Shown: positions 3,553-44,525, counted from the stretch's first letter. The stretch: 64,000 bases of DNA from a virus (IMGVR_UViG_3300005805_000046:64001-128000); one strand, 5' to 3'. Numbers and translations are program-made. Notes: generated by a model from the letters alone, not told the origin.

Positions 3553-3594
3553 ATTGTACAACAGTGTATCGTCACTGTCAATCCTCGTCCTTGA
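3553..3594 (-). promoter_or_regulatory. overlapping sigma70-like and sigma28-like promoter
   Basis: TTGACA-17-TACAAT plus TCAA-17-GACGATAC. Confidence 0.7.
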
Positions 3595-8204: not shown

Positions 8205-8370
8205 TATTCTAGTTACTATGTTTTTTTCATCTTCTTCTCTAGTCTTTTCATCTTCTTTTCTAGTTTCTTTAGGTATTCCATTTCTTCTTCATGGAATTCC
8301 TTGTTTTCTTTTTCTATCTTTTTGAATATTTTTTTCCAGAATTTCATATTATATTCTCCTTGTTTTTAAG

Positions 8371-8724
8371 TGGAGGCGGCGGCATCGAAGCCGCGTCCTA
8401 GTAATACCGTTTTGATCTTTTCTACAAGTTTATTTTGTTCATAAATTAAGCGAAATTACAGAACAAACAAGACTTATTTCGCCTTACCAACTGCTCTTAA
8501 CCTACAACCCGCTGGATATTGTAAGTGCAGAGGGATTTAACGACAGACTTTTGATCGCTACCCTCATTCGCAATCGCAGTCTGTTACTGCCTGTTTTTAT
8601 TAGGCAGCAAGGGCTAACTGAGTTGTGCCAGTTAAAGCATTTGATATGATGATTAAAGAGGCCAACATATCATCCTCTACTTGCTAAAACCAATCGGTTA
8701 TTATAGTCGAAACCTTTCGCCCCC
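8371..8724 (-). ncRNA. ssrA: tmRNA; tag (A)GTTQLALAA
   Basis: 5' GGGGGCGAAAGGTTTCGAC, 3' T-arm and CGCCTCCA with G3:U70; tag frame 8629-8603 then TAA TAA. Confidence 0.93.
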
Positions 8725-22692: not shown

Positions 22693-23763
22693 GCCCATTC
22701 TCACTACGGGCATATACAATAAGTAAAAATATGGCGATATTATGCAGAGATAGGTGTTGAAACCCATAATATGCTGTTATTTTCCCGAAAAGTCCGATGA
22801 TGTGAATACTGATCTATGGGGGAATAATAGTCTTAAAACTTGTGGTTGTGAATAAAATCGTACCAGAACCATGCAACTAATGGTCGCTACTGCTACAAAT
22901 ATTAAAGAACCGAGAAAAGGTTGATGATTTTTAGCCATTTTAGTCTAACTCGTCATATTCGTTAAAAAGTACCAAATAGACACAGTACCAAAAAATTAAG
23001 CAGAGGATAATGGGCATTGTGAAAAGTTCCCTATAATTATCCATTGAAGTATCTAAATGTCCTTATCAGAATTGCTACGCACGATAGTATTAGTATTGGT
23101 ATTATTGCTAGTCTTGCTTCATCTGTATGTATGAAAGTTGGACACAGAGGTTTTTTCACCACAGTTAGTTGGGCCATTAGATTTGGTAACATAATAAATC
23201 CATGCTATATAGGCTGGCCAAAATAATGACACGGCCAATATTAGTACTAATGTGAAAATAGAAATGATTTTACCCTATCCAAAAAAGATAACTTAACAAT
23301 AACCTGTGGAACATCTTGTTCCTTCTTTTTCCTGATCCTTGGCTTCTTTGCTACTGGTGATTTCTTAACAGACTTTTTCTTTGCCATAATAATGTTTCCA
23401 TATTCTCGCTGACTACAACCACAAAAACCAAACCCTGTACATTTGGTAGTACAAAACCACAACACACAACCTATACTACCCTATTGTTCGTTCCCGTGCA
23501 AGTGCGTTTTGTATTATTAAAAAATTTCTTTAAGCCACATTTGATGCTTGACGACAACCCTGAATTTATTTAAGTATTATGCAGCGGGTGGGATATTATA
23601 TTCTTCTTGTATCTAGTAATACTTGATACTAATAACACCTTACAACCATTCTCCCGCATCACTCATTCTTTATGAATTCGCCCCCTTGACCACAAAAGAA
23701 AATCTGGTAGTATAGTCTACACACACAAAGGGCCAACAACCCTGCCTGACTATAAAAAGTTTG

Positions 23764-25103: not shown

Positions 25104-25132
25104 CCCAAACCCTTACTACTACTAGCCTTACG
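25104..25132. repeat. solo degenerate 29-bp palindromic site
   Basis: CCCAAACCCTT-ACTACTA-CTAGCCTTACG. Confidence 0.45.
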
Positions 25133-25198: not shown

Positions 25199-25280
25199 CG
25201 TAACCCCTTGTGAATACTAAACTTAGGACTAATTTCCGGGGCCCCGCTCGCCCTAAACCCTCTTGGGCAAAGGACTTAGA
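25199..25280. repeat. 82-bp paired-palindrome element, copy 1
   Basis: 29+24+29; spacers GTGAATA / TTGGGCA. Confidence 0.9.
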
Positions 25281-25309
25281 GCGAGTCGGGGTTTCACCGA
25301 ACGAAAGGA

Positions 25310-26257
25310 TTAGATGGCGTTCGCAAACTCAAGAGCGGTCTTTAACGCCTTGCCGTTCTCGTTAGCGTTCTGGCCGAACCAGAGCGAATCGAGTCGGTTG
25401 TCGGTCGTGCGACCCTTGTTATAGTTAAGGTATTCGTTGTAGCCGTTATAAGCGGCCCACCAAGTACCCCTCACGCCCGTTGCTGATTGCTTCGGCCCTT
25501 CGACCAGAGCAAGAATCTCGTCCATGATATTGCGGGTACGAGTCTTAATGTCCTCGTCCACGGTGCCTTCGATACCCAGCATTACCTTAACGTACCGACG
25601 AATATCGGCCTGATTAAAGTTCTTGCTAGCGAGGAATCGAAACTGTTCCGCAGTAGCCTCAAACTGGACATTAATGTTATCCATAATATCCCGCACTTGT
25701 TCCAGATTCTTTTGGCTGGAGCGAGTGTGTCGAATCCGAATCAATTGCGATCCGCTATTGCTATGGGCCATAGCCATCGTGTTAGCACACACAACGCGAA
25801 TCGGGGTATAGCCGACGCGAATTGCGGTTGTGCCATCATGGCTGTTAGACAGAAGGATAAACTTGGAAACCTCGTCACCCTTCACGATCTCGCTATTGTC
25901 ACGGTTGAGTTGAGCGAGAACCCATACCTTTTGACCGCTATGGAGCGATCCGGCAGTATGGAGTTGGCACTCGTTAGCATCGAGAAACGGCTGGAACCAA
26001 TCGAAAGCATCGCTGTTTTGCAGCGGGGTATATCGCGGGCCAACAACACCCAAGATAGAATTGTCCGTCTTGCGATAGGTTGCACGAGCCGGAACCGGAG
26101 TACCTTCGCTCGTAAACAAATCCTTAAGACCAACCTCCCAGTCCAGACCAGCGGAGGTAATCGCCTCGCTAATCGTGGGAGCCTCGTCCAACTGATTGCC
26201 AAGACCGTGCCACGGGGTAGCACCAACAAACATCATCTGTTCAACTGCATGAGCCAT
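25310..26257 (-). CDS. DUF932 / TIGR03299 phage-plasmid protein
   Basis: TPWHGLG, AGLDWEV, NSHDGTTA, TPIRVVCANT, RIRHT, GTWWAAYN. Confidence 0.9.
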   Translation of the reverse strand: MAHAVEQMMFVGATPWHGLGNQLDEAPTISEAITSAGLDWEVGLKDLFTSEGTPVPARATYRKTDNSILGVVGPRYTPLQNSDAFDWFQPFLDANECQLHTAGSLHSGQKVWVLAQLNRDNSEIVKGDEVSKFILLSNSHDGTTAIRVGYTPIRVVCANTMAMAHSNSGSQLIRIRHTRSSQKNLEQVRDIMDNINVQFEATAEQFRFLASKNFNQADIRRYVKVMLGIEGTVDEDIKTRTRNIMDEILALVEGPKQSATGVRGTWWAAYNGYNEYLNYNKGRTTDNRLDSLWFGQNANENGKALKTALEFANAI

Positions 26258-26357
26258 CTCATTGCCCTTTCGTGTTATCGTACTTCGTTCAACTCCACTT
26301 ATTCTACAGTATGTTATCGGCTTGTCAACAGGAAATCTTGCGAAAAAATTTTCTCGC

Positions 26358-26439
26358 CGTAAGGTGTTGATGCGTAAGGGTTTGCGTCACGCGGGGCCGC
26401 CCCGGCTCGCCCTAAGTCTTTGGCGGGCCTGGATTTAGG
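26358..26439. repeat. 82-bp element, copy 2
   Basis: Spacers GATGCGT / GGCGGGC; supplies the stop codon of the PRTase gene. Confidence 0.9.
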
Positions 26440-26918
26440 AACAGCGTGCCGAAATCACGTTCAAAAAGTTTAGCGTTATCGGTGTTGTATGCACACTCAT
26501 CCGGCATATAACAATAAACGCCAACACACTTGGATTTAGGACATTCTTCGTAGATGGTATTTTTAATAAATTTGATAGTAGAGCCAGAGCAAACCAGATC
26601 GTCAACAATAACGTATCTAAAAGGAATCACACCCTCTATAGCAAAATCACTATACGATTTTGTTTCTGGTTTTCTAATTACAACAATGTGCTTATCTAGT
26701 AATTCTGCTATTTGCGGAACAACCATCAATCCACTAGTTCCGCAGCAAACAATACTATCGAACTGATTGCTAATCTTACGCAGGTCGCAAACAGCCTTTA
26801 CAATAGCCCTATTTCTAATCTTGTGGTTCAATACCATGCAGGTGTGGCTAGCACCTTGTATAACCTTGCCATCTGCCATTACCCTGAAATCATCTATATT
26901 CTGATTCAGCGTATTCAT
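26412..26918 (-). CDS. type I phosphoribosyltransferase
   Basis: PRPP-binding loop VIVDDLVCSGST; IVVIRK. Confidence 0.8.
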   Translation of the reverse strand: MNTLNQNIDDFRVMADGKVIQGASHTCMVLNHKIRNRAIVKAVCDLRKISNQFDSIVCCGTSGLMVVPQIAELLDKHIVVIRKPETKSYSDFAIEGVIPFRYVIVDDLVCSGSTIKFIKNTIYEECPKSKCVGVYCYMPDECAYNTDNAKLFERDFGTLFLNPGPPKT

Positions 26919-26921
26919 AAG

Positions 26922-27008
26922 AGTGGATGGTGCGATTCGAACGCACTACTTTAGAAAAGAAAGAAAGAATTTATAGAAAAGAGTCTCGTCCCACCGAGAT
27001 GCATCCAC
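26922..27008 (-). ncRNA. tRNA-like RNA lacking an anticodon stem
   Basis: GTGGATG/CATCCAC acceptor, TCTCG/CGAGA D-like arm, GTGCG-TTCGAAT-CGCAC T arm, unpaired pyrimidine tract in the middle. Confidence 0.7.
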
Positions 27009-27012
27009 ATAG

Positions 27013-27201
27013 TTACTCGTCAACAATTTCATCTTCTACAGTATTGTACGAATTAACCCATTCATCAATGTCTTTATCGTCATTAACTTCGTACAGTTCG
27101 TCCTCATTATAATCTTCTTCCTCTAGAAGATCATCAAATTCACTATTCATCATAGTTTGATAGTCGAACGGATAGTCTGTTTCTTCGTCATTGTAACGCA
27201 T
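27013..27201 (-). CDS. very acidic small protein
   Basis: AAGGAG RBS; D/E-rich. Confidence 0.7.
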   Translation of the reverse strand: MRYNDEETDYPFDYQTMMNSEFDDLLEEEDYNEDELYEVNDDKDIDEWVNSYNTVEDEIVDE

Positions 27202-27253
27202 AAACTCACTCCTTTCTAATTCTAGAATACACCAAATGGGTCAACTTGTCAAG

Positions 27254-27327
27254 TGGGCCCCCTGGGACTCGAACCCAGAACCAACAGATTAAAAGTCTGT
27301 TGCACTAACCAATTGTGCTAGAGGCCC
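27254..27327 (-). tRNA. tRNA-Lys(TTT)
   Basis: ACAGA-CTTTTAA-TCTGT; canonical cloverleaf. Confidence 0.93.
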
Positions 27328-27340
27328 ATCAGTAAGTATT

Positions 27341-27583
27341 TTACTTATAGTTGCCTATATAGTCAATAGCCTTACATTTACGCCAAGATACAGGAATACC
27401 GCCTTTAGGATAGTGATTAGTATTAACGTCGCTGCCGTCGCTTTGCTCGGGGGAATGGTCAACGAAATGAACAATATACGTTTTTGTAGCGCCCTGTCCA
27501 TCAACCCCAACAACCCTAGCCCTGCTGGCAGTATACAAGCCAGTCTCATACCAGACTATATCGCCTTCCTGAAAGTTGTTCAT
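27341..27583 (-). CDS. SH3-like hypothetical protein
   Basis: FQEGDIVWY...ARVVGV. Confidence 0.55.
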   Translation of the reverse strand: MNNFQEGDIVWYETGLYTASRARVVGVDGQGATKTYIVHFVDHSPEQSDGSDVNTNHYPKGGIPVSWRKCKAIDYIGNYK

Positions 27584-27740
27584 TCTGTTAATTTTCTTCC
27601 ATATTGATTTGAGAATATCCTGTGATCATACCTAGTCCAATAATAATAATAAATAAAGTTGACAAATTCGCTATTCTCCAAGGTGCGGGTCGATCCTATA
27701 TCAGTATACAGCAGTCTCCACAGTTGTCAAACATACACAG

Positions 27741-27811
27741 CAAAGGCGGAAGGAGTCGAACCTTCATCTACGGTTTTGGAGACCGTCATTCTACCGTTGA
27801 ACTACGCCAAT
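27741..27811 (-). tRNA. tRNA-Trp(CCA), two U-U mismatches in acceptor stem
   Basis: ACGGT-CTCCAAA-ACCGT; acceptor ATTGGCG/CGCCTTT. Confidence 0.8.
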
Positions 27812-27837
27812 GTCCGCAACTCTGCGTCAGCCTCCGA

Positions 27838-27924
27838 CGGAATCTGAGGGATTCGAACCCCCGGAGGATTTTAACCCTCGGCGGTTTAGTAAACCGCTGC
27901 CTTAAACCACTCGGCCAAGATTCC
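27838..27924 (-). tRNA. tRNA-Ser(ACT)
   Basis: GGAATCT/AGATTCC-G73, GCGGT-TTACTAA-ACCGC, long variable arm. Confidence 0.88.
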
Positions 27925-27927
27925 AAA

Positions 27928-27999
27928 CTGCCCGACTAGGACTCGAACCTAGAACCTACAAATTAACAGTTTGCCGCACTACCATTGTGCTATCGGGCA
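27928..27999 (-). tRNA. tRNA-Asn(GTT)
   Basis: GCAAA-CTGTTAA-TTTGT. Confidence 0.92.
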
Positions 28000-28004
28000 A
28001 AAAA

Positions 28005-28427
28005 TTATACCGCCACTTCCCTTGGCATAATCTTATAAGTCTTACTACGAATATCAGTGCTTGTCATATTATTCTCTATCTCAAAATCCAAAATCTTTGC
28101 CATAACTATCAAGTCATCTGCTATTCTATTATAGTCTTTTTCGCAAGAACCAAATGCTACATTACTATTATAGTTCAAACAAGAAAGCAATTCGGCCGAT
28201 ATGTTCTCTATAGCAGCAAATTTCATTTTATAACCATATAGGTTAGATCTACTGTTATTAGTCATAAACTCATACATCATTATTCCCATATCGCTAATAG
28301 AATTATTAAAAGAACGAATAGTAACTTCATTCTTTTTGATAGTATCTATTCTTTGAGTCTCGTTCATCTTGGTGAGACCCCAACTGCCGATTTCTCTTGC
28401 CAAGTATATCGCATTACTTCCAAGCAT
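28005..28427 (-). CDS. hypothetical protein within tRNA cluster
   Basis: AAGGAG RBS, MLGSNAIY start. Confidence 0.6.
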   Translation of the reverse strand: MLGSNAIYLAREIGSWGLTKMNETQRIDTIKKNEVTIRSFNNSISDMGIMMYEFMTNNSRSNLYGYKMKFAAIENISAELLSCLNYNSNVAFGSCEKDYNRIADDLIVMAKILDFEIENNMTSTDIRSKTYKIMPREVAV

Positions 28428-28445
28428 AATTATCTCCTTTATTAA

Positions 28446-28516
28446 TTCCGGGGCTAGGATTCGAACCCAGACAAAGAGAACCAAAATCTCTGGTGCTACC
28501 GTTACACTACCCCGGA
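28446..28516 (-). tRNA. tRNA-Gln(TTG)
   Basis: AGAGA-TTTTGGT-TCTCT. Confidence 0.92.
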
Positions 28517-28517
28517 G

Positions 28518-28590
28518 AGCCGATGATAGGAGTCGAACCTACAACCCACGGTTTACAAAACCGTTGCTCTGCCATTGAAGCTACATCGGC
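28518..28590 (-). tRNA. tRNA-Thr(TGT)
   Basis: ACGGT-TTTGTAA-ACCGT. Confidence 0.93.
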
Positions 28591-28594
28591 AATC

Positions 28595-28789
28595 CTACAT
28601 ATCATACTCTTGCTGCCAGCCCCTGTCAATGTCTCGTCGTGTTCGCTGTCGCTTGGGCCTGCTGTCCATAGTAGTATCCCGATACTCCTTGTGTCCCGTA
28701 GGAGCCTCCCAAGGCTGCTTGACCTTGACTTTGATCTTGCCGTACTTGCGGCGTGGTCGGGTATCGTCGTTGTTGTGGAGCGTAATCAT
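28595..28789 (-). CDS. small basic protein (RPKRQRTR), overlapped by upstream ORF
   Basis: Protein-like basic sequence in an alternative frame. Confidence 0.5.
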   Translation of the reverse strand: MITLHNNDDTRPRRKYGKIKVKVKQPWEAPTGHKEYRDTTMDSRPKRQRTRRDIDRGWQQEYDM

Positions 28790-28994
28790 GCCATTGTCCA
28801 TTTTCGTGTAAGTAAAAAACCTTGTCAACATTAGGGTCGTAAGCCATTAAGCAGTATTGTACTGGATAAACTACTTTTGTCAATACTTCTTTTTTTGGTA
28901 GTTTGGGTATTTTTATATCACCCTTCTGATAGTCTTTTACACCATTATAGGCTAATCCTAATAGGGCAATAATAACCCCTATCCACTGAATCAT
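28626..28994 (-). CDS. N-terminal membrane-anchored hypothetical protein
   Basis: AGGGAG RBS, hydrophobic N-terminus. Confidence 0.55.
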   Translation of the reverse strand: MIQWIGVIIALLGLAYNGVKDYQKGDIKIPKLPKKEVLTKVVYPVQYCLMAYDPNVDKVFYLHENGQWHDYAPQQRRYPTTPQVRQDQSQGQAALGGSYGTQGVSGYYYGQQAQATANTTRH

Positions 28995-29062
28995 TCTTTC
29001 TCCCTTGCGTCTGATGAGCATACCATAGTTATCGGTAGTTGTCCACCCATTCTTTAGTTTTT

Positions 29063-29144
29063 CCTAAGTGGTTGAAATATAAGGGGTTACGATCAGCCGG
29101 GCCGGCCCCGCTCGCCCTAAGTGCTTACGCCCAAAGGGTTTGCG
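29063..29144. repeat. 82-bp element, copy 3
   Basis: Spacers GAAATAT / ACGCCCA. Confidence 0.9.
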
Positions 29145-29151
29145 GTTAGTT

Positions 29152-29394
29152 TTATTCGTCTTCTCTATTGATTTCCCAGCCGGCTAGTCTACATACTTTA
29201 TTTAGTTTGATAACCTGCGTTAACTTATCGGCTGTAGTATAGTCTCTAAAACCACGCTCATCTATATAGAAGTATTCATCTAGAACATCGAACTTATTGC
29301 TTTCGCCAAGAGTAGTTACTGCTGCCTCAAGAGGATTTTTACTTGTTGAGTAGATTAGTTCTAGCGTACCACATTTGACATAATATTTAGACAT
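29152..29394 (-). CDS. hypothetical protein
   Basis: GAGG RBS, MSKYYVKCG start. Confidence 0.65.
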   Translation of the reverse strand: MSKYYVKCGTLELIYSTSKNPLEAAVTTLGESNKFDVLDEYFYIDERGFRDYTTADKLTQVIKLNKVCRLAGWEINREDE

Positions 29395-29980
29395 AACATT
29401 CCTCGCATTTAGGGCAGTCACAATAAGCATCATCAACGCCTTGATAGCAAACTTCTGGAAACATATCGTCGTCCGTATATCCGATACTTTCTCGTCCAAA
29501 GTCAATCGGAACTAATATCCTAGATTTGCCACGCCTAACATATCCAAAATTACCCTCATGGCAATCAGAGTATTCCACCCCGTAGTCGCTGATTTCTTCC
29601 AACAAATCAGATAAAACATAATAGTTAGAGCAACATCCAGAATCTATACAAGACCCCTCACACTCACTATTTCTACACACAAAAGGCTTTGCAATTTCGG
29701 TTAAGTAACCCCAATCGCTCAATACCATTTCTGTACGATATTTTATCTTATTGTTCTTGATGCCGTCTACAAAATAATTAGGAACCCTGATCCTACACAC
29801 AGGACTATAAACCTTCGGAGCAAGATATGGGGCCAAATGACTTTGAACAGCATGAGCAAACTCGGCCAAACTCTTATTAGGAAAACTCTTGAAACCATAT
29901 GGTTTTCCAGACAGTTTATAGAAAGAGTTCCTGCTACCACTATTCTCATACTTTCCAACATAACTAAATTTAGCAGCCAT
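29387..29980 (-). CDS. minimal protein-kinase-like fold protein with Cys clusters
   Basis: SGSRNSFY, GFKSF, LAPKVYS, DCHEGNFG, IDFG. Confidence 0.65.
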   Translation of the reverse strand: MAAKFSYVGKYENSGSRNSFYKLSGKPYGFKSFPNKSLAEFAHAVQSHLAPYLAPKVYSPVCRIRVPNYFVDGIKNNKIKYRTEMVLSDWGYLTEIAKPFVCRNSECEGSCIDSGCCSNYYVLSDLLEEISDYGVEYSDCHEGNFGYVRRGKSRILVPIDFGRESIGYTDDDMFPEVCYQGVDDAYCDCPKCEECYV

Positions 29981-29988
29981 GATTATTC

Positions 29989-30696
29989 CTAGTGAGCGGG
30001 AAACAGTACGTTAGCCAAACCCTTGACGCACATATCACAACTTATACTATCTTTCGTACCGGTGCAAGTGATAACCGAACGACCGCGACGAATTTCTGGA
30101 CAAGTCACAAACTTCTCACCGTTCAGCACGACCAGTTTGGGCAACGCTTGCCGCCAAGCGTCGGCCTTAGCCTTGTTCTTTGGTCGCTTCGGGGCAATTT
30201 TCATATCGCTATCGCACCACGCAAACAACTTGAAGCCTTGATTCTTAGCCTCATTCATATCGTTATCGTCGTGAACACTAGCATAGACTGCCATATACTT
30301 TTCCAGAGCCACGAGCCGACTATCGTAGATATGAGTATAGAACCACATATCGGGCAGACTATCGCCACTAGCAAGAATACTCTCGCAAGCCCACGTTACA
30401 TTATCAACGTAGTCTGTGTCAAGTTCACCATTGAGAAACCAATCGCCACGTTCATGCCAGCGGATAGATTTCTCACGCTTTTTTGCGTCAAGAATCATAG
30501 CACGGATTTTGTTTTTCTCCGTGATTACGTTAGCAAAACCAGCGACACGGGCGTTTTTGTACTGCCGTTCAGTACCTTCGGCATAACAGCCGTTTCCGAG
30601 ATAATCGCAATCGCTTGGGCAAGTATCGCCAACCGGACGCGAAACCACAATGCAACCCTTACCCAACTTATCATTACCGTCTGCGGTTTTCATCAT
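29989..30696 (-). CDS. GP88-like Cys-rich protein
   Basis: GNDKLG, TCPSDC...GCYA, IRWHERGDW, WFYTH, C-terminal CxxC. Confidence 0.7.
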   Translation of the reverse strand: MMKTADGNDKLGKGCIVVSRPVGDTCPSDCDYLGNGCYAEGTERQYKNARVAGFANVITEKNKIRAMILDAKKREKSIRWHERGDWFLNGELDTDYVDNVTWACESILASGDSLPDMWFYTHIYDSRLVALEKYMAVYASVHDDNDMNEAKNQGFKLFAWCDSDMKIAPKRPKNKAKADAWRQALPKLVVLNGEKFVTCPEIRRGRSVITCTGTKDSISCDMCVKGLANVLFPAH

Positions 30697-30775
30697 TCTT
30701 CTCCTAGCGTGTCTGATGATTCTACACTAGGTTATCGGTACTGTCAAGGCATTTTCTTGAAGAAATTATTTTTGA

Positions 30776-30857
30776 CGCAAGGTGTTGATACTAAAGGAGT
30801 TACGTCAAGCGGGGCCGCCCCCGCTCGCCCTAAGTCTTTATCCTCAAAGAGTTTAGA
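30776..30857. repeat. 82-bp element, copy 4
   Basis: Spacers GATACTA / ATCCTCA. Confidence 0.9.
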
Positions 30858-30912
30858 AGCAGTTCACACATGCTTAAAAACTGCTCAGTAGTTTCTGCTT
30901 CGTTTTTCATAG

Positions 30913-39255: not shown

Positions 39256-39594
39256 TCATGCGTCCCCCTTCCATGCAAACGGAGAAACTTCCTCACCACA
39301 AGCCAGAATCGCACCATATTGGTGAGCCAGAGCCTCAACCCGTTCCTTTGAACCCGGCTTTCCAGCCTTTACGATCATGGTATCCTCACCACCCACAAAT
39401 CGAGGATCGGACTTCTCTTTCTTCATCTTGCCAAGATTGCGAAGTGCTTTACGATTGAACTTCAAAACTTTTTCCGAACGAATCGGGCCATACTCACCAT
39501 CCGCAAGAGAGGGTTGGTGGGGAATCGCAATTCCGAGAAAGCACATACGAGCCTGTTTCTTAGCGTTTTCGATAATATCAAATTTCTGTTTCAT
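39256..39594 (-). CDS. hypothetical protein (PGS.ERVE.L...Y motif)
   Basis: AGGGA RBS, own promoter. Confidence 0.65.
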   Translation of the reverse strand: MKQKFDIIENAKKQARMCFLGIAIPHQPSLADGEYGPIRSEKVLKFNRKALRNLGKMKKEKSDPRFVGGEDTMIVKAGKPGSKERVEALAHQYGAILACGEEVSPFAWKGDA

Positions 39595-39651
39595 GTTTTC
39601 CCTTTCGTGTTGGTCTGATTCTAGCAAAACTCTTTGGCGAATGTCAACCCC

Positions 39652-39840
39652 TTACTTCGAGGGGGTGTACGCATCCAAATCCAACTTTCGACGAATCACC
39701 CGAAGGGTCTGCAAATCCTCAATGAGCATCTTGGTCAGGCTTTCGCTTAGACCGCTTTCGACCAAAGAACTCAGGTTATCCTCACTGGTTTTCAGCAGAG
39801 CAGCCACAACGATTTCTTCACTCACAGTCAACTTTTCCAT
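39652..39840 (-). CDS. hypothetical protein
   Basis: ORF with own promoter. Confidence 0.6.
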   Translation of the reverse strand: MEKLTVSEEIVVAALLKTSEDNLSSLVESGLSESLTKMLIEDLQTLRVIRRKLDLDAYTPSK

Positions 39841-39925
39841 CTTTCACTCTCTCTTTCTTATGCTGAATTATACCTTAATTATCGTCAAAAGTCAAATGGA
39901 ATCTTTAGAAAATTCTCGGATTTTC

Positions 39926-39954
39926 CCTAAGTCCTTATTTGGTCCGGGGTTGCA
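39926..39954. repeat. solo 29-bp site with truncated linker
   Basis: CCTAAGTCCTT-ATTTGGT-CCGGGGTTGCA then TCGA. Confidence 0.6.
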
Positions 39955-40009
39955 TCGACCCGCTTCGTTTAGGTAGCACAGTGGACAGATGGTATCGTGA
40001 GAAATTGCT

Positions 40010-40091
40010 CGTAAAGCGTTGGTATCAAACAACTTACGGCAAGCGGGGCGGCGCCGGCTCGCCCTAAGTCCTTATATAGCAACCACTTAGG
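40010..40091. repeat. 82-bp element, copy 13
   Basis: Spacers GGTATCA / ATATAGC. Confidence 0.92.
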
Positions 40092-40291
40092 TTAAGAGTT
40101 AATTACCCAAGCAACCACACAACCGAAAGCAAAGGATACAGAAAGCACTACCTTATCATAAAGGTTCATTATTTCTTCCTTACTGGAAAAACAAGATCAC
40201 AAACAAACCAAGAACAACCAACACCAACAACAAATCCCACACCCATCCACATCCAATCTATATTAATATCGATCATCCGTGATTCCTTTCT

Positions 40292-40498
40292 TTAATCCTT
40301 TTTATATCCTACGAGCCACCGAGTACCATCCTCATCTGTATGGATAAATCCATTAGACTCAAATCCTGCATCATTCAATTCCTTTTCGGCCATTCTCTTA
40401 CACAGGGTATCCCCAATAGCAAGCACAGCACAAACCAATCCCATGATAATGATACCTACGACGAACAGGCAAGAGATAGCGATTAGTTGTGGGCTCAT
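40292..40498 (-). CDS. small membrane protein
   Basis: Hydrophobic N-terminal helix. Confidence 0.6.
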   Translation of the reverse strand: MSPQLIAISCLFVVGIIIMGLVCAVLAIGDTLCKRMAEKELNDAGFESNGFIHTDEDGTRWLVGYKKD

Positions 40499-40686
40499 TT
40501 GGTAAGGTTCCAAGTATAGACGTTATCGTTCACTTTCACACATCGTACATCAGAGATCGGCAAATGTCCAGTGCGAACATTAGAGCAATCCGGAAAGAAC
40601 TCTCTCACAATCTTATACGCTTCGAGCGTATTCTTAGCACGAACAAAACCAACAGCCAAACCATTCTGATAAACTTCCAAAGTCAT
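40495..40686 (-). CDS. hypothetical protein
   Basis: GAGG RBS. Confidence 0.6.
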   Translation of the reverse strand: MTLEVYQNGLAVGFVRAKNTLEAYKIVREFFPDCSNVRTGHLPISDVRCVKVNDNVYTWNLTK

Positions 40687-40785
40687 CTTCTTTTCCTCTT
40701 TCTTTCTCATACTACGATTCTACACTACTAATATCGGCTTGTCAAGCCTAGCCACATGAATTTTTTCAGATTTTTTATTTTGCGT

Positions 40786-40867
40786 TGTAAGTCTATATGT
40801 AGCATATACTTAGGTCGAATTTTGCGGCGCCGGCTCGCCCTAAGTACTTACGTAGCAACTACTTACG
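40786..40867. repeat. 82-bp element, copy 14
   Basis: Spacers ATGTAGC / ACGTAGC. Confidence 0.9.
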
Positions 40868-41021
40868 TTTACTATTCATATCCTTAAGAATAGCAACGAT
40901 CATAGCCAATTCGTTACTCGTCTGATTCGGGCTCATCGTATTCCCTTTCATCTTCTTCGAGCCAATCAGCATAATCATACAGTGGGTCAGGGCAACTCAT
41001 CTCTTTTCTCCTTTACTTCTT

Positions 41022-41057
41022 ATATCGGTATTATACAGGAAAATCTTTAGGGGTCAA
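41022..41057 (-). promoter_or_regulatory. dual promoter with reversed stagger
   Basis: TTGACC-16-TATAAT with TAAA-16-ACCGATAT. Confidence 0.7.
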
Positions 41058-41256
41058 TACTGAACATTTGTTTTTTCTAGAATAGAATCTAAATGAATTT
41101 CCCCATTCTCTACAACCCACCCATATTCCCTAGTAGGCGTATACGTCCCAAGATAATATTTCCCATCGCTATATCCCTCATACCCAGCCCCAAATCCCAT
41201 GAACGTGATAGCCAAAATCATATCGTACATTATAGCCTCTCTTTCTTATATATATA

Positions 41257-41284
41257 ATATCGGCTAATCCCCATATATACTTTA
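41257..41284 (-). promoter_or_regulatory. sigma28-like promoter without TTGACA
   Basis: TAAAG...(16)...GCCGATAT. Confidence 0.65.
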
Positions 41285-41299
41285 GAGATATTTATTGGT

Positions 41300-41381
41300 C
41301 ATAAACCCTTACTGCATAAGTACTTAGGACAAATTTTGCCCAGAGAATTCGCCCTAAGTCATTGGTATACAACAACTTATA
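41300..41381. repeat. 82-bp element, copy 15
   Basis: Spacers ACTGCAT / GGTATAC. Confidence 0.88.
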
Positions 41382-41404
41382 GCGAATATAGCCGCTACCC
41401 CCTC

Positions 41405-41593
41405 TTAGGTAGCATGGATGAACACTCGTTCATTTACGGTACGGTTGGTCAGCGTAACGATCCAGTTCCTACCGCTACCATCCTCACGCATGATGCAGTT
41501 GATAAGGCCAACGTGTACGTTACCCTTAGTATCCACAACGCTACCATACTTACCCGTACGCATCGCAGAGAGAATCTTGTCAAGGCTATTCAT
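41405..41593 (-). CDS. conserved phage protein (I.REDGSGRNW family)
   Basis: Motif, AAGGA RBS. Confidence 0.65.
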   Translation of the reverse strand: MNSLDKILSAMRTGKYGSVVDTKGNVHVGLINCIMREDGSGRNWIVTLTNRTVNERVFIHAT

Positions 41594-41884
41594 TTTCTTT
41601 TCCTTTGGGGTTGTGTGCATTGTACCAATATTCTTTTGTGTGTCAAGTCTTAGAGAATCGTACCATCACCACGAATACGATACATGATTCCACCGATACT
41701 ATACAGGCAGATACCTTCGCCCATATTCTGAACAAACGTAGCCGAATATCCGTGGCGAGCAACCAACCGGCGAATCGTATTTTGCACTTGGATCGTCATT
41801 TGCTTTCTCTCTTTCTTATGTCCCAATTATACCAATATAATCGTCAGGAGTCAAATACTATCTTTAAAATATTCTTAAATTGCT

Positions 41885-41937
41885 CCTAAACTCTTACAGC
41901 ATAAGGAGTTACGTCAAGCGGAGGGGGGGTTTTTTTG
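41885..41937. repeat. terminal half element followed by G7/T8 run
   Basis: Site A 41885-41913, linker start TCAAGCGG, then AGGGGGGGTTTTTTTT. Confidence 0.75.
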
Positions 41938-42030: not shown

Positions 42031-43275
42031 TTATATTATTCTCCTAATTCTCTTGAAGCCTATAACCTTAAGCTCCCCCGTATCTTTATTCTCAGCCACC
42101 ACCTTAACCTCGTTCCATCCTCTAGCGAACATTCTACGGTTTAGCCTAACGTCGAACCCATGGTTACCATCGCCCCAGTGTTTTAGGTCGTTTCGATATC
42201 TATTAGAGTCCGCAACACTAGCGACACGGTCATTAATTAAAATCTTGATCCGTATCCTATCATGAATCCTATCAGAGTCTAAAGTCCACCCACGAACTCT
42301 ATTGATATTCAATATGTCCACTCGTCCCACGATCCTTTCATTCCAACTTTTAATAACCACGGGCAAAGATGGAGCTATAGCTTTAAATGCAGCATCGTCT
42401 AATGCTCTACTAGCATTTAAAGATCCTCCACTACTTACCTTATCGGCCAATCCCACACTAATATCAGCACTACTAAAAATTTTCGATCTAATATCCTCAA
42501 CACCCATAGACCCGTATTTCCTGCATAATGCTGCTATTGTTCCTGTTACCTGAGGAGCAGCCATACTAGTACCACTTAAACTACCATACCTATTGCCCGG
42601 TAGCGTTGAATATATGGCCGTACCCCTAGCCGCAATATCCACACTATTTTTTCCATAATTAGAAAATCCCGCTAGCGTTGCGTTGTCTGACCCACAAGCA
42701 GCCACAGCAATAATATTAGACTGAGAGTATGAACTGGGATATCTAGGTACAGAGTCATTATCAGACCCACTGTTTCCAGCAGCGCTCACAAAAACTATAT
42801 TAGCCTCACTAGCTCTTGTTATAGCGCCATCTAATGAGCTTGAATAACCAGTAGTTCCACCCCAGCTATTATTAATCGCTACCACATCCACTCCAAAATT
42901 CTTTTTCATCATCACAATATAATCTATAGACCTTATAGCATCGCCCGTAAAACCAAATCCACTATCATCCTGAAACTTCAATACCATTATATTAACAGCC
43001 CCATAACTAGCTACTATCCCACCCACATGAGTACCATGACCATACCCATCCTGCACCACATTATTATTTCCACTAAAATTCCATCCATATATATCGTCCA
43101 CATATCCGTTGTTATCGTCATCAATATTATTATCTACGATTTCTCCAGGATTTTTCCACAAACTATCCTTTAATGCTTCGTGATTAACGTCGATTCCACT
43201 ATCTATAATCGCCACAATAGGAGTTAACAGAGACCTATTTTCCAGATTTTCTATCCCTAGAGTAGTCTTTTTCAT
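42031..43275 (-). CDS. S8 subtilisin-like serine protease with planctomycete-type N-terminal motif
   Basis: IIDSG, HGTHVGG, AAGN, GTSMAAP; LGIENLENRSLL. Confidence 0.92.
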   Translation of the reverse strand: MKKTTLGIENLENRSLLTPIVAIIDSGIDVNHEALKDSLWKNPGEIVDNNIDDDNNGYVDDIYGWNFSGNNNVVQDGYGHGTHVGGIVASYGAVNIMVLKFQDDSGFGFTGDAIRSIDYIVMMKKNFGVDVVAINNSWGGTTGYSSSLDGAITRASEANIVFVSAAGNSGSDNDSVPRYPSSYSQSNIIAVAACGSDNATLAGFSNYGKNSVDIAARGTAIYSTLPGNRYGSLSGTSMAAPQVTGTIAALCRKYGSMGVEDIRSKIFSSADISVGLADKVSSGGSLNASRALDDAAFKAIAPSLPVVIKSWNERIVGRVDILNINRVRGWTLDSDRIHDRIRIKILINDRVASVADSNRYRNDLKHWGDGNHGFDVRLNRRMFARGWNEVKVVAENKDTGELKVIGFKRIRRII

Positions 43276-43686: not shown

Positions 43687-44292
43687 TTAGTTAGGTTCCG
43701 CATATATCCAGAAATGTTGTGGATGAGCTGCCGGATTTGGATGCTTAATAATAGTCGGAGATTCATATCCTAGTCTTTTAAGTTGACCCATAACTTCCGC
43801 TTCTTTGTTATGTATTTCTATCAACCATTTAACTCTACTAAATATAGGATACGTTGCTCCAGCTAGCACATCCTCTTCCGCGCCCTCCACATCAACCTTA
43901 ATAAATACTATCGATAAGTCGGAAATGTCGGCTATTTGATCAAGAGTTATCGTTTGTATATCCACAGTTTCCACAATAGGAGCCTCCGCAGCACCACATC
44001 CTCCGATTGGATGTTCCATAAGCAAAGATGTTTGAAGAGGACTATCTCTTAGATACAAGCTAAGACGTTCGCTCCTTGAAGATACAGCAGCATTTTTACA
44101 AATAACATTACTAGGAGGAGTAGACGCCTTGAGTTCTTTAAAAGCTCTAGGATCCGGTTCCACAGAGATCACTTGCTTGAAATACTTGGACATTAAAGAA
44201 GACCATTCTCCAACATTAGCTCCTATATCTAGAGCTAGGCCATTAACATCACACGATTTATTCACATAGTTTTTTACCCAGTATTCGTCCAT
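43687..44292 (-). CDS. FkbM-family SAM methyltransferase
   Basis: LDIGANVG, VEPD, FIKVDVEGAE, IEIH. Confidence 0.9.
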   Translation of the reverse strand: MDEYWVKNYVNKSCDVNGLALDIGANVGEWSSLMSKYFKQVISVEPDPRAFKELKASTPPSNVICKNAAVSSRSERLSLYLRDSPLQTSLLMEHPIGGCGAAEAPIVETVDIQTITLDQIADISDLSIVFIKVDVEGAEEDVLAGATYPIFSRVKWLIEIHNKEAEVMGQLKRLGYESPTIIKHPNPAAHPQHFWIYAEPN

Positions 44293-44294
44293 AC

Positions 44295-44525
44295 TTATAC
44301 TGTTTCGTTGGCTGCTGTTTGCTGAGATAATATATCAGCCTTGCGAGGACGACCACGAGCCTTCTTGATCGACAACTTGCGACGTTGACGACGAACCATG
44401 CTACGAGTAACATTTTGGCCACTAATTTCCGAAAGCTTTAATGCCATAGTTTCATCATTAAAAGAATTTTGGTTTGCTTGGATAAACTCTAGTTCGTTTG
44501 GCTGCCATTTTTTGTAATTCGCCAT
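44295..44525 (-). CDS. small HTH protein with AT-hook-like RGRPRK
   Basis: KKW...E..FI; MVRRQRRKL; AGGAG RBS. Confidence 0.65.
   Translation of the reverse strand: MANYKKWQPNELEFIQANQNSFNDETMALKLSEISGQNVTRSMVRRQRRKLSIKKARGRPRKADILSQQTAANETV

Follow-up and report, generated by a model that had tools for sequence, protein, structure and literature searches.

A lake-water virus genome of 153,585 bp (IMG/VR record IMGVR_UViG_3300005805_000046, rated complete by CheckV) carries, within bases 64001-128000, an array of fifteen copies of an 82-bp element that is built from two palindromic sites, A and B. This 64,000-nucleotide stretch, which has a G+C content of 38.6%, is referred to here as the window, and coordinates are window positions. 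The reading that we favor, with a probability of roughly 0.6, is that the element is a protein-docking module on duplex DNA and is part of the DNA upstream of strong sigma70-type early promoters of one subclass.

The array was first described in a reading of the window made without database searches (the sequence-only reading), which listed fifteen copies in a single orientation, together with three solo sites. When a position weight matrix (PWM) trained on the fifteen copies was run over the full genome, it returned precisely the same fifteen and none besides (scores 61-112; next best score below 0), all of them in the plus orientation and confined to positions 25199-41381. A looser site pattern gave 17 forward and 14 reverse matches, all inside 25199-41913, compared with 1 and 0 for a reversed-pattern control, and a PWM of the 29-bp site ranked the three solo sites as the top three non-element sites of the genome, each above the shuffle maximum of 13.6 (Table 1). 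The fixed length that had been noted despite heavy substitution was borne out as well, since the spacing of neighboring sites, measured independently of the 82-bp model in 2.27 Mb of related loci, was 53 bp in 759 cases and 52 bp in 19, with no other common value. A search of IMG/VR with a 16-base pattern spanning the junction of linker and site B matched 119 loci, 103 of which contain elements (445 in total), and in five complete relatives (152-230 kb) roughly 7-17 elements per genome were found, always in one 12-20-kb region.

All tRNAs, ATG-led open reading frames (ORFs) and about 35 near-consensus TTGACA-N16/17-TATAAT promoters of the region are on the minus strand, and on this strand the order of parts is gene stop, site B, linker, site A, A/T tract, T(C/A)AAG box, -35, spacer with GCCGATAA, -10 and next gene. 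Most of the elements had been said to lie right after a stop codon and before the next promoter, which holds once the minus strand is read: about 10 of the 15 copies have the stop codon within 0-30 nt of site B, and the promoter is on the far side of site A. Promoters were called when at least 10 of 12 consensus positions matched, beside site A, within 90 bp and pointing away from the element. Such a promoter adjoined site A in 255 of the 413 copies with flanks, compared with 7, 1 and 20 for three control placements. The distances from site A to the -35 were discontinuous, with peaks at 18, 28-29, 39-40, 49-50 and 59-60 bp. After related copies had been collapsed into 294 clusters, 178 of which had a promoter, the best distance period was 10.5 bp (mean resultant length 0.65, Rayleigh p ~3e-33, 178 clusters); in the commonest spacing class, the center of site A is near -78 and site B is near -131. 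A distance register of 10.5 bp points to a protein-binding module on duplex DNA that is set in phase with the promoter.

The layout of the element is equally regular, with site A (29 bp), a linker of 24 bp and site B (29 bp), an 11-7-11 geometry of inverted arms around a 7-bp center in every copy, and site axes 53 bp, or about 5 helical turns, apart. Read from the center outwards, each of the four half-sites follows YAAGGACTTASG, and this half-site consensus occurs 17 times in the window (1.0 expected), all within elements. The GC-rich linker holds a third, weaker dyad, C-N-A-N4-GGC-N2-GCC-N4-T-N-G (C31/G52, A33/T50, GGC/GCC), the axis of which is 26.5 bp from either site axis. Positions A4A5, T25T26 and A57 are invariant, A58, T78 and T79 are near-invariant (97-100%), and T10T11 and A19A20 are conserved at about 90%, and the half-sites vary independently of each other around the invariant AA and TT steps. 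The 7-bp centers are the most variable part and differ among nearly all 30 sites. In 103 orthologous pairs, divergence was 3-6% in the arms, 6-7% in the flanks, 16% in the linker and 24% in the center of site A.

Base pairing left no comparable trace. Among 423 unique copies, the strongest mutual information was solely between adjacent positions, and the Watson-Crick counts of all candidate pairs (i+j = 30, 136 and 83, covering local and long hairpins) were near, and mostly at or below, the expectation for independence, with a few small excesses at terminal positions only (1-2 and 81-82). Single-sided changes outnumbered double changes in the 103 orthologous, non-identical pairs (109 versus 10 in site A, 58 versus 9 in site B). 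Conservation of positions rather than of pairs reads as the signature of duplex sites that are recognized half-site by half-site by a protein.

We propose that a dimeric or pairwise-bound, sequence-specific protein would occupy sites A and B and would probably bend the DNA, and that the protein-DNA complex would lie on one helix face relative to RNA polymerase, where it may modulate the promoter, by activation or shut-off, and may also mark or insulate the end of the preceding transcription unit. A module repeated 7-17 times per genome and throughout the lineage would hence be a preferred substrate of general (homologous) recombination, which could re-assort units consisting of site B, genes, promoter and site A between phages, much like the PeSL cassettes (early promoter plus stem-loop) of T4-type phages. 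Several points weigh against this proposal. An A/T unit of 10-11 bp that became duplicated could account in part for the one-turn spacing classes, even though lengths in between are almost never seen. At the strict threshold, 38% of the copies have no promoter within 90 bp, and eight promoters of the same type (with a CGATA box in the spacer) are found elsewhere in the window without an element, so that the module is not required for promoter function as such. Protein binding, the identity of the binder and the sign of the effect on transcription are what we infer, with the binder only a candidate, and the location right after stop codons would suit an insulator equally well.

Insulation might in fact come first, with a tightly bound complex acting as a roadblock that halts read-through, so that the cassettes would be expressed only from their own promoters and promoter modulation would be secondary or absent. 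We consider this alternative improbable. It agrees with the short distance between stop codon and site B, with the lack of enrichment of canonical intrinsic terminators in the region (21 versus 13.4 +/- 3.9 expected), with the presence of same-type promoters without elements outside the array, and with the PeSLs, which join a promoter and a transcription stop. However, the strict helical register with the next promoter is something that a roadblock would not need, and the orientation is fixed with site A promoter-proximal.

Exchange between related phages was examined at the elements themselves. Whether gene-content breakpoints between relatives fall in the elements was a test put forward with the sequence-only reading; when it was run, breakpoints between relatives and between lake strains were found inside them. 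A close relative (G001; 152,676 bp, 84-98% identity) and two other lake strains are without the 1.49-kb segment 34468-35953 (joint 34467->35954), and 418 bp of the present genome (37156-37574) are replaced by 44 bp in G001. A three-way comparison showed that element 14 (40786) has site A from one G001 element and site B plus the right flank from another that is 700 bp away there, with the junction in the linker, and the solo site 41885 is the counterpart of site B of the G001 element that matches the 41300 locus. Over all loci, 146 of 1201 ends of high-scoring segment pairs lay inside elements, compared with 68 +/- 8.5 for random places; 174 element pairs shared one flank only and 201 shared both. 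Most change points are inside the element and spread along its whole length, and a fixed crossover point is not established.

Contigs from other lakes contain four joints at which an A half and a B half, separate in the present genome, come together as an element of exactly 82 bp. One joint skips 34468-35953; the other three link A(38159) with B(36836) (38188->36880), A(41885) with B(36836) (41917->36874), and A(41885) with B(39926) (41918->39921), the last with 14 other letters that give a linker of 5+14+5 = 24 bp. From this last joint, the solo sites 39926 and 41885 are seen to be the two halves of a single element, which is whole in another strain. In G001 the 41885 site occupies the place of site B, and in another lake strain that of site A. 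The elements are, from these comparisons, the seams of early-gene cassette swapping between related phages. The scattered crossovers, together with the variable centers and the missing recombinase, favor general homologous exchange, as has been proposed for PeSLs, with the linker as a possible preferred zone. One further unit, at 38565-38906 (a promoter and a 95-aa ORF, 38612..38899), is absent from G001, and in another lake strain 35 different letters stand in its place. The junctions of this unit lie outside elements, so not all cassette turnover uses elements. A more elaborate scheme, which we consider unlikely, would have a nucleoprotein complex (e.g. a protein with a helix-turn-helix (HTH) and an AT-hook, with or without a host bender) both gate the early promoters and target the exchange of these site B-to-site A units between co-infecting phages, without a canonical recombinase. 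In this scheme, blocks would leave and enter through breakage of an element in its linker, as suggested by the two solo sites that form one intact element in another lake strain and by the re-assortment of A and B halves with the exact 82-bp geometry.

Junctions inside elements would also be expected if the elements were dedicated site-specific recombination sites, either integron-like or dif/lox-like, with circular intermediates and a host Xer-type or an unrecognized phage recombinase. We judge this quite unlikely. The 11-7-11 geometry does agree with recombinase core sites, in that dif, lox and FRT have inverted arms around a 6-8-bp center, and the elements resemble these sites and attC in having inverted arms around a 7-bp center and in lying at cassette boundaries. 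Moreover, the two solo halves that are intact elsewhere look as if a block had been inserted by breaking the linker, and one 29-bp site has the role of A or of B depending on the genome. On the other hand, the search for a tyrosine recombinase, which had been called for in the sequence-only reading after none was seen in the window, was widened to seven complete genomes, and neither tyrosine (PF00589) nor serine (PF00239) recombinases were found in the own genome and six complete relatives (control profiles for PF00589 were positive). Tyrosine recombinases, and the dif, lox and FRT sites, need matching central overlap regions, yet the centers differ in nearly all copies and evolve fastest, that of site A even between orthologues. 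The change points are not at one position, and promoter phasing would have no role in such a system. In attC arrays an IntI-type tyrosine recombinase is adjacent, the fold is conserved while sequence and length vary, and promoterless cassettes depend on a common promoter; here PF00589 is absent, the length is fixed, the sequence is conserved without compensatory changes or attC-like structural conservation, and a strong promoter stands beside most elements. The integron-like capture mechanism that had been offered as one explanation of the array is therefore not supported: with no recombinase, fixed length, conserved sequence, no compensatory pairing, variable centers and an own promoter for each unit, the integron reading of such arrays is tempting yet wrong.

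It is very improbable that the element acts as RNA on the transcribed strand, be it in termination or attenuation, in processing or as a put/nut-like structure, in the manner of the PeSL stem-loop. The element would be transcribed if read-through occurs, its palindromes are able to fold, and PeSL stem-loops with GGGG..CCCC function as terminators. However, covariation is absent, both in the 423 copies and in the orthologous pairs, and the RNA folds predicted for the 15 copies differ from one another, with weak z-scores (+1.2 to -3.4), so that the earlier remark on one long hairpin spanning the entire element holds only weakly. A GC-rich hairpin followed by a U run on the transcribed strand, as in intrinsic terminators, was not seen within elements: minus-strand stems have no U tract, no minus-strand terminator-like site lies within any element (41398->41379 merely overlaps the last 3 bp of element 15), and the two terminator-like matches inside elements are both on the plus strand. 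In an Rfam scan of 20000-46000, only tRNAs and a Pistol ribozyme reached the gathering score, with nothing on the elements, and the few sub-threshold matches overlapped tRNA genes. With no co-varying base pair and with inconsistent folding, an RNA or single-stranded DNA hairpin was ruled out.

It is just as hard to credit that the many clustered high-affinity sites in a single region of each genome are a scaffold for compacting, protecting or positioning DNA presumed to enter first, or are replication or partition sites unrelated to transcription, since this leaves the fixed orientation and the promoter register unexplained and PF00216 is absent (ParB or DNABII genes were not sought beyond PF00216); of the tandem binding-site scaffold in the sequence-only reading, the duplex protein-binding sites are supported, whereas their purpose appears tied to promoters, through the 10.5-bp phasing, and not to organizing or protecting injected DNA.

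As to which protein might dock at the elements, one candidate is a small basic protein encoded at 44295..44525 (Table 1). Its AlphaFold2 model has a mean pLDDT of 79 and only middling fold matches (Z 5-7), and AT_hook was matched below threshold in 4 of 7 family members. The protein is present in 6 of 6 complete relatives besides the own genome and in 289 IMG/VR loci. In 80 loci with the HTH gene, no element was found in the 10 kb upstream, and the arrays begin 0.5 to >10 kb downstream; this association amounts to synteny within one lineage and is not proof of binding. No half-site lies upstream of the HTH gene, so there is no evident autoregulation. After it come the genes for a methyltransferase of the FkbM type (43687-44292) and an S8 peptidase (42031-43275). 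Since this methyltransferase is not a DNA methylase, the idea of a GcrA/CcrM-like pairing was given up; GANTC does not occur in the elements. A host IHF-like bender is a further candidate, by analogy; the DNABII (HU/IHF) gene family PF00216 is absent from the seven complete phage genomes, so that IHF-like binding would need a host protein. The product of 36031..36471, the most widely conserved cassette gene, was considered and appears an unlikely binder, with a hydrophobic N-terminal stretch like that of a membrane protein. For conserved basic cassette proteins, searches of PDB sequences and of the ESM Atlas were uninformative.

Table 1. Elements, solo sites and related features of the array. 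d, distance in bp from site A to the promoter -35; promoters are on the minus strand; PWM scores are for the 82-bp element or, for solo sites, the 29-bp site.
Feature	Position	Strand	PWM score	Promoter	Remarks
Element 1	25199..25280	+	70.4	25165->25137, 33 bp from site A	Most degenerate copy, distal end of array
Element 2	26358..26439	+	95.6	26328->26301, d=29	Stop of PRTase-like gene (26412..26918, -) inside site B
Promoter unit, example	26301..26357	-			A/T tract, T(C/A)AAG box, TTGACA, spacer with GCCGATAA, TAGAAT; layout found beside most elements
Element 3	29063..29144	+	95.1		Only a weak TGGACA-type promoter beside site A
Element 4	30776..30857	+	100.0	30747->30719, d=28	
Element 5	31660..31741	+	85.4	31618->31591, d=41	Upstream gene 31742..32113 (-) stops 0 nt from site B
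Element 6	32841..32922	+	88.0	32812->32785, d=28	
Element 7	34804..34885	+	90.8	34777->34749, d=26	Within 1.49-kb indel 34468-35953
Element 8	35916..35997	+	80.1	35896->35869, d=19	Right junction of 1.49-kb indel at linker position 38/39
Element 9	36836..36917	+	107.6		Site B paired with site A of element 11 or solo 41885 in other lake strains
Element 10	37454..37535	+	83.2	37426->37398, d=27	In 418-bp stretch (37156-37574) replaced in G001
Element 11	38159..38240	+	99.9	38120->38093, d=38	Upstream gene 38241..38552 (-) stops 0 nt from site B
Element 12	39108..39189	+	111.6	39077->39049, d=30	
Element 13	40010..40091	+	100.6		No strong promoter directly adjoining; solo site 39926 is 56 bp beyond site A
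Element 14	40786..40867	+	76.7	40745->40717, d=40	Chimera of two G001 elements
Element 15	41300..41381	+	60.8		G001 homology ends at linker position 40
Solo site	25104..25132	.	17.6		Degenerate 29-bp site
Solo site	39926..39954	.	15.6	39895->39867, d=30	Left-over site B
Solo site	41885..41913	.	29.4	41854->41826, d=30	Head of array
Candidate binder (unproven)	44295..44525	-			76-aa basic protein, three-helix HTH like Myb, homeodomain or GcrA DNA-binding domain, then C-terminal RGRP AT-hook; first gene of leftward early region

Most of the cassette genes examined have no known function; family matches include DUF932, a PRTase-like protein, DUF7227/GP88, DUF7249 and Kyano_Gp96, and several cassette genes are conserved in 30-48 related loci. 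Two small minus-strand ORFs are extremely acidic, one at 37541-37795 (84 aa, 0 K/R, 29 D/E) and the other at 27013-27201 (62 aa, 2 K/R, 26 D/E), and both are candidates for DNA mimics, e.g. anti-restriction proteins or nucleoid-protein inhibitors. The Pistol ribozyme (31140-31202, minus strand) scored 53.7 bits against a gathering score of 34.5, and in G001 the surrounding 235-bp stretch (30985-31220) has given way to 72 bp, so the ribozyme is an indel polymorphism between strains. The window has nine tRNAs, seven of them inside the array region, and a phage transfer-messenger RNA (8370-8724, minus strand) with the tag peptide GTTQLALAA. The array promoters and those at 3581, 5662, 7035, 9284, 10775, 13479, 17054 and 20643 (minus strand) have a GCCGATAA-like box in the spacer between -35 and -10 and a T(C/A)AAG box 7-8 nt upstream of the -35. 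If these promoters are read as sigma28 promoters, the spacing from the T(C/A)AAG box to GCCGATAA is 13 nt, compared with 11 in the consensus; the spacer box also resembles TCGATAAATT, the high-affinity motif of H-NS. Another repeat family, with a unit of about 48 nt (CTGACTAC..ATCCG.AGGATTAGGT..GAC), is found at 23405, 24519, 24991, 32643 and 35658 (plus coordinates), and two copies, which are 85% identical, adjoin the element-less box promoters 32563 and 35645.

Lake-water and freshwater metagenomes from a dozen studies contain DNA of these phages, and no RNA sequencing run is among the listed datasets that hold phage sequence. Neither the region nor a single element had a DNA match among GenBank phages, the portal protein had no match there, and the best isolate match of the large terminase was only 25% identical (Bacillus phages). 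In GTDB bacterial genomes, only four contigs of metagenome-assembled genomes matched, each with whole arrays (RFTN01000003.1, JBILVZ010000050.1, RGPR01000186.1 and JAGLHE010000243.1); their bins are an unclassified bacterium, Methylococcaceae, Gammaproteobacteria and Omnitrophota. These are probably phage contigs that were binned with bacteria, and the bins may give at best a weak hint of a gammaproteobacterial host. With hundreds of copies in about 100 uncultured freshwater phage genomes (80-240 kb) and no match in GenBank phages, the element represents a large, apparently undescribed family of cis-elements.

Several known systems share parts of this design. The KorB operators (OB) of plasmid RK2 are a dozen copies of a single 13-bp palindrome, located at varying distances upstream of promoters, through which one protein exerts global control. 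The array is like them in having many copies of one palindromic operator across a replicon and upstream of promoters, but OB has no fixed partner site and no phasing. In phage phi29, the sites of p4 upstream of promoters A2c, A2b and A3, which are sigma-A promoters, are paired wide inverted repeats with non-conserved centers near -71 and -82, and p4 is a small phage protein that bends DNA and activates or represses through contact with RNA polymerase. Paired wide inverted repeats with variable centers upstream of promoters are also what we find here; the sequence, however, is unrelated, and phi29 has one regulatory region, compared with 7-17 copies per genome in the present phages. IHF complexes have two proline kinks 9 bp apart, and the AA steps of the element half-sites are likewise 9 bp apart; YR (pyrimidine-purine) steps flank the center in 82-92% of copies. 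Read outwards, all four half-sites are YAA-N4-TTA, compared with YAA-N4-TTR in the core of the IHF consensus WATCAANNNNTTR (quoted in PMC8942017 and PMC11724364), and the phased upstream position is a further likeness. The element departs from IHF sites in lacking conservation of the WAT part of WATCAANNNNTTR, in its constrained N4 (with a preference for GGAC) and in having a palindromic site.

The PeSL cassettes of T4-type phages are organized around a motif of about 100 bp that joins a strong sigma70-like early promoter, an AT-rich tract and a GC-rich palindrome, and their stem-loop is a functional terminator with a variable position relative to the promoter (Arbiol et al. 2010, PMC2839356; Comeau et al. 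2014, PMC4122927). As in those cassettes, the neighbors of the element are small early genes, most of them unknown, a strong sigma70-like early promoter is preceded by an AT-rich tract, and the junctions of insertions, deletions and replacements between close relatives are located in the motif, indicating gene shuffling. The differences lie in the design and the lineage. The element is a rigid 82-bp module with three dyads, always upstream and in helical register, in which base pairing is not selected; a stem-loop terminator is not apparent, as judged from unselected pairing, inconsistent folds and the lack of a U tract on the coding strand; and the phage does not belong to the Straboviridae, having no DNA or portal match in GenBank phages and a terminase only 25% identical to that of Bacillus phages. 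Overall, the PeSL idea, that regulatory cassettes are the seams of modular evolution, is extended to an unrelated lineage with a protein-site design, and the strict geometry and helical promoter register offer a directly testable way into the control and exchange of host-takeover genes in an unstudied phage lineage.

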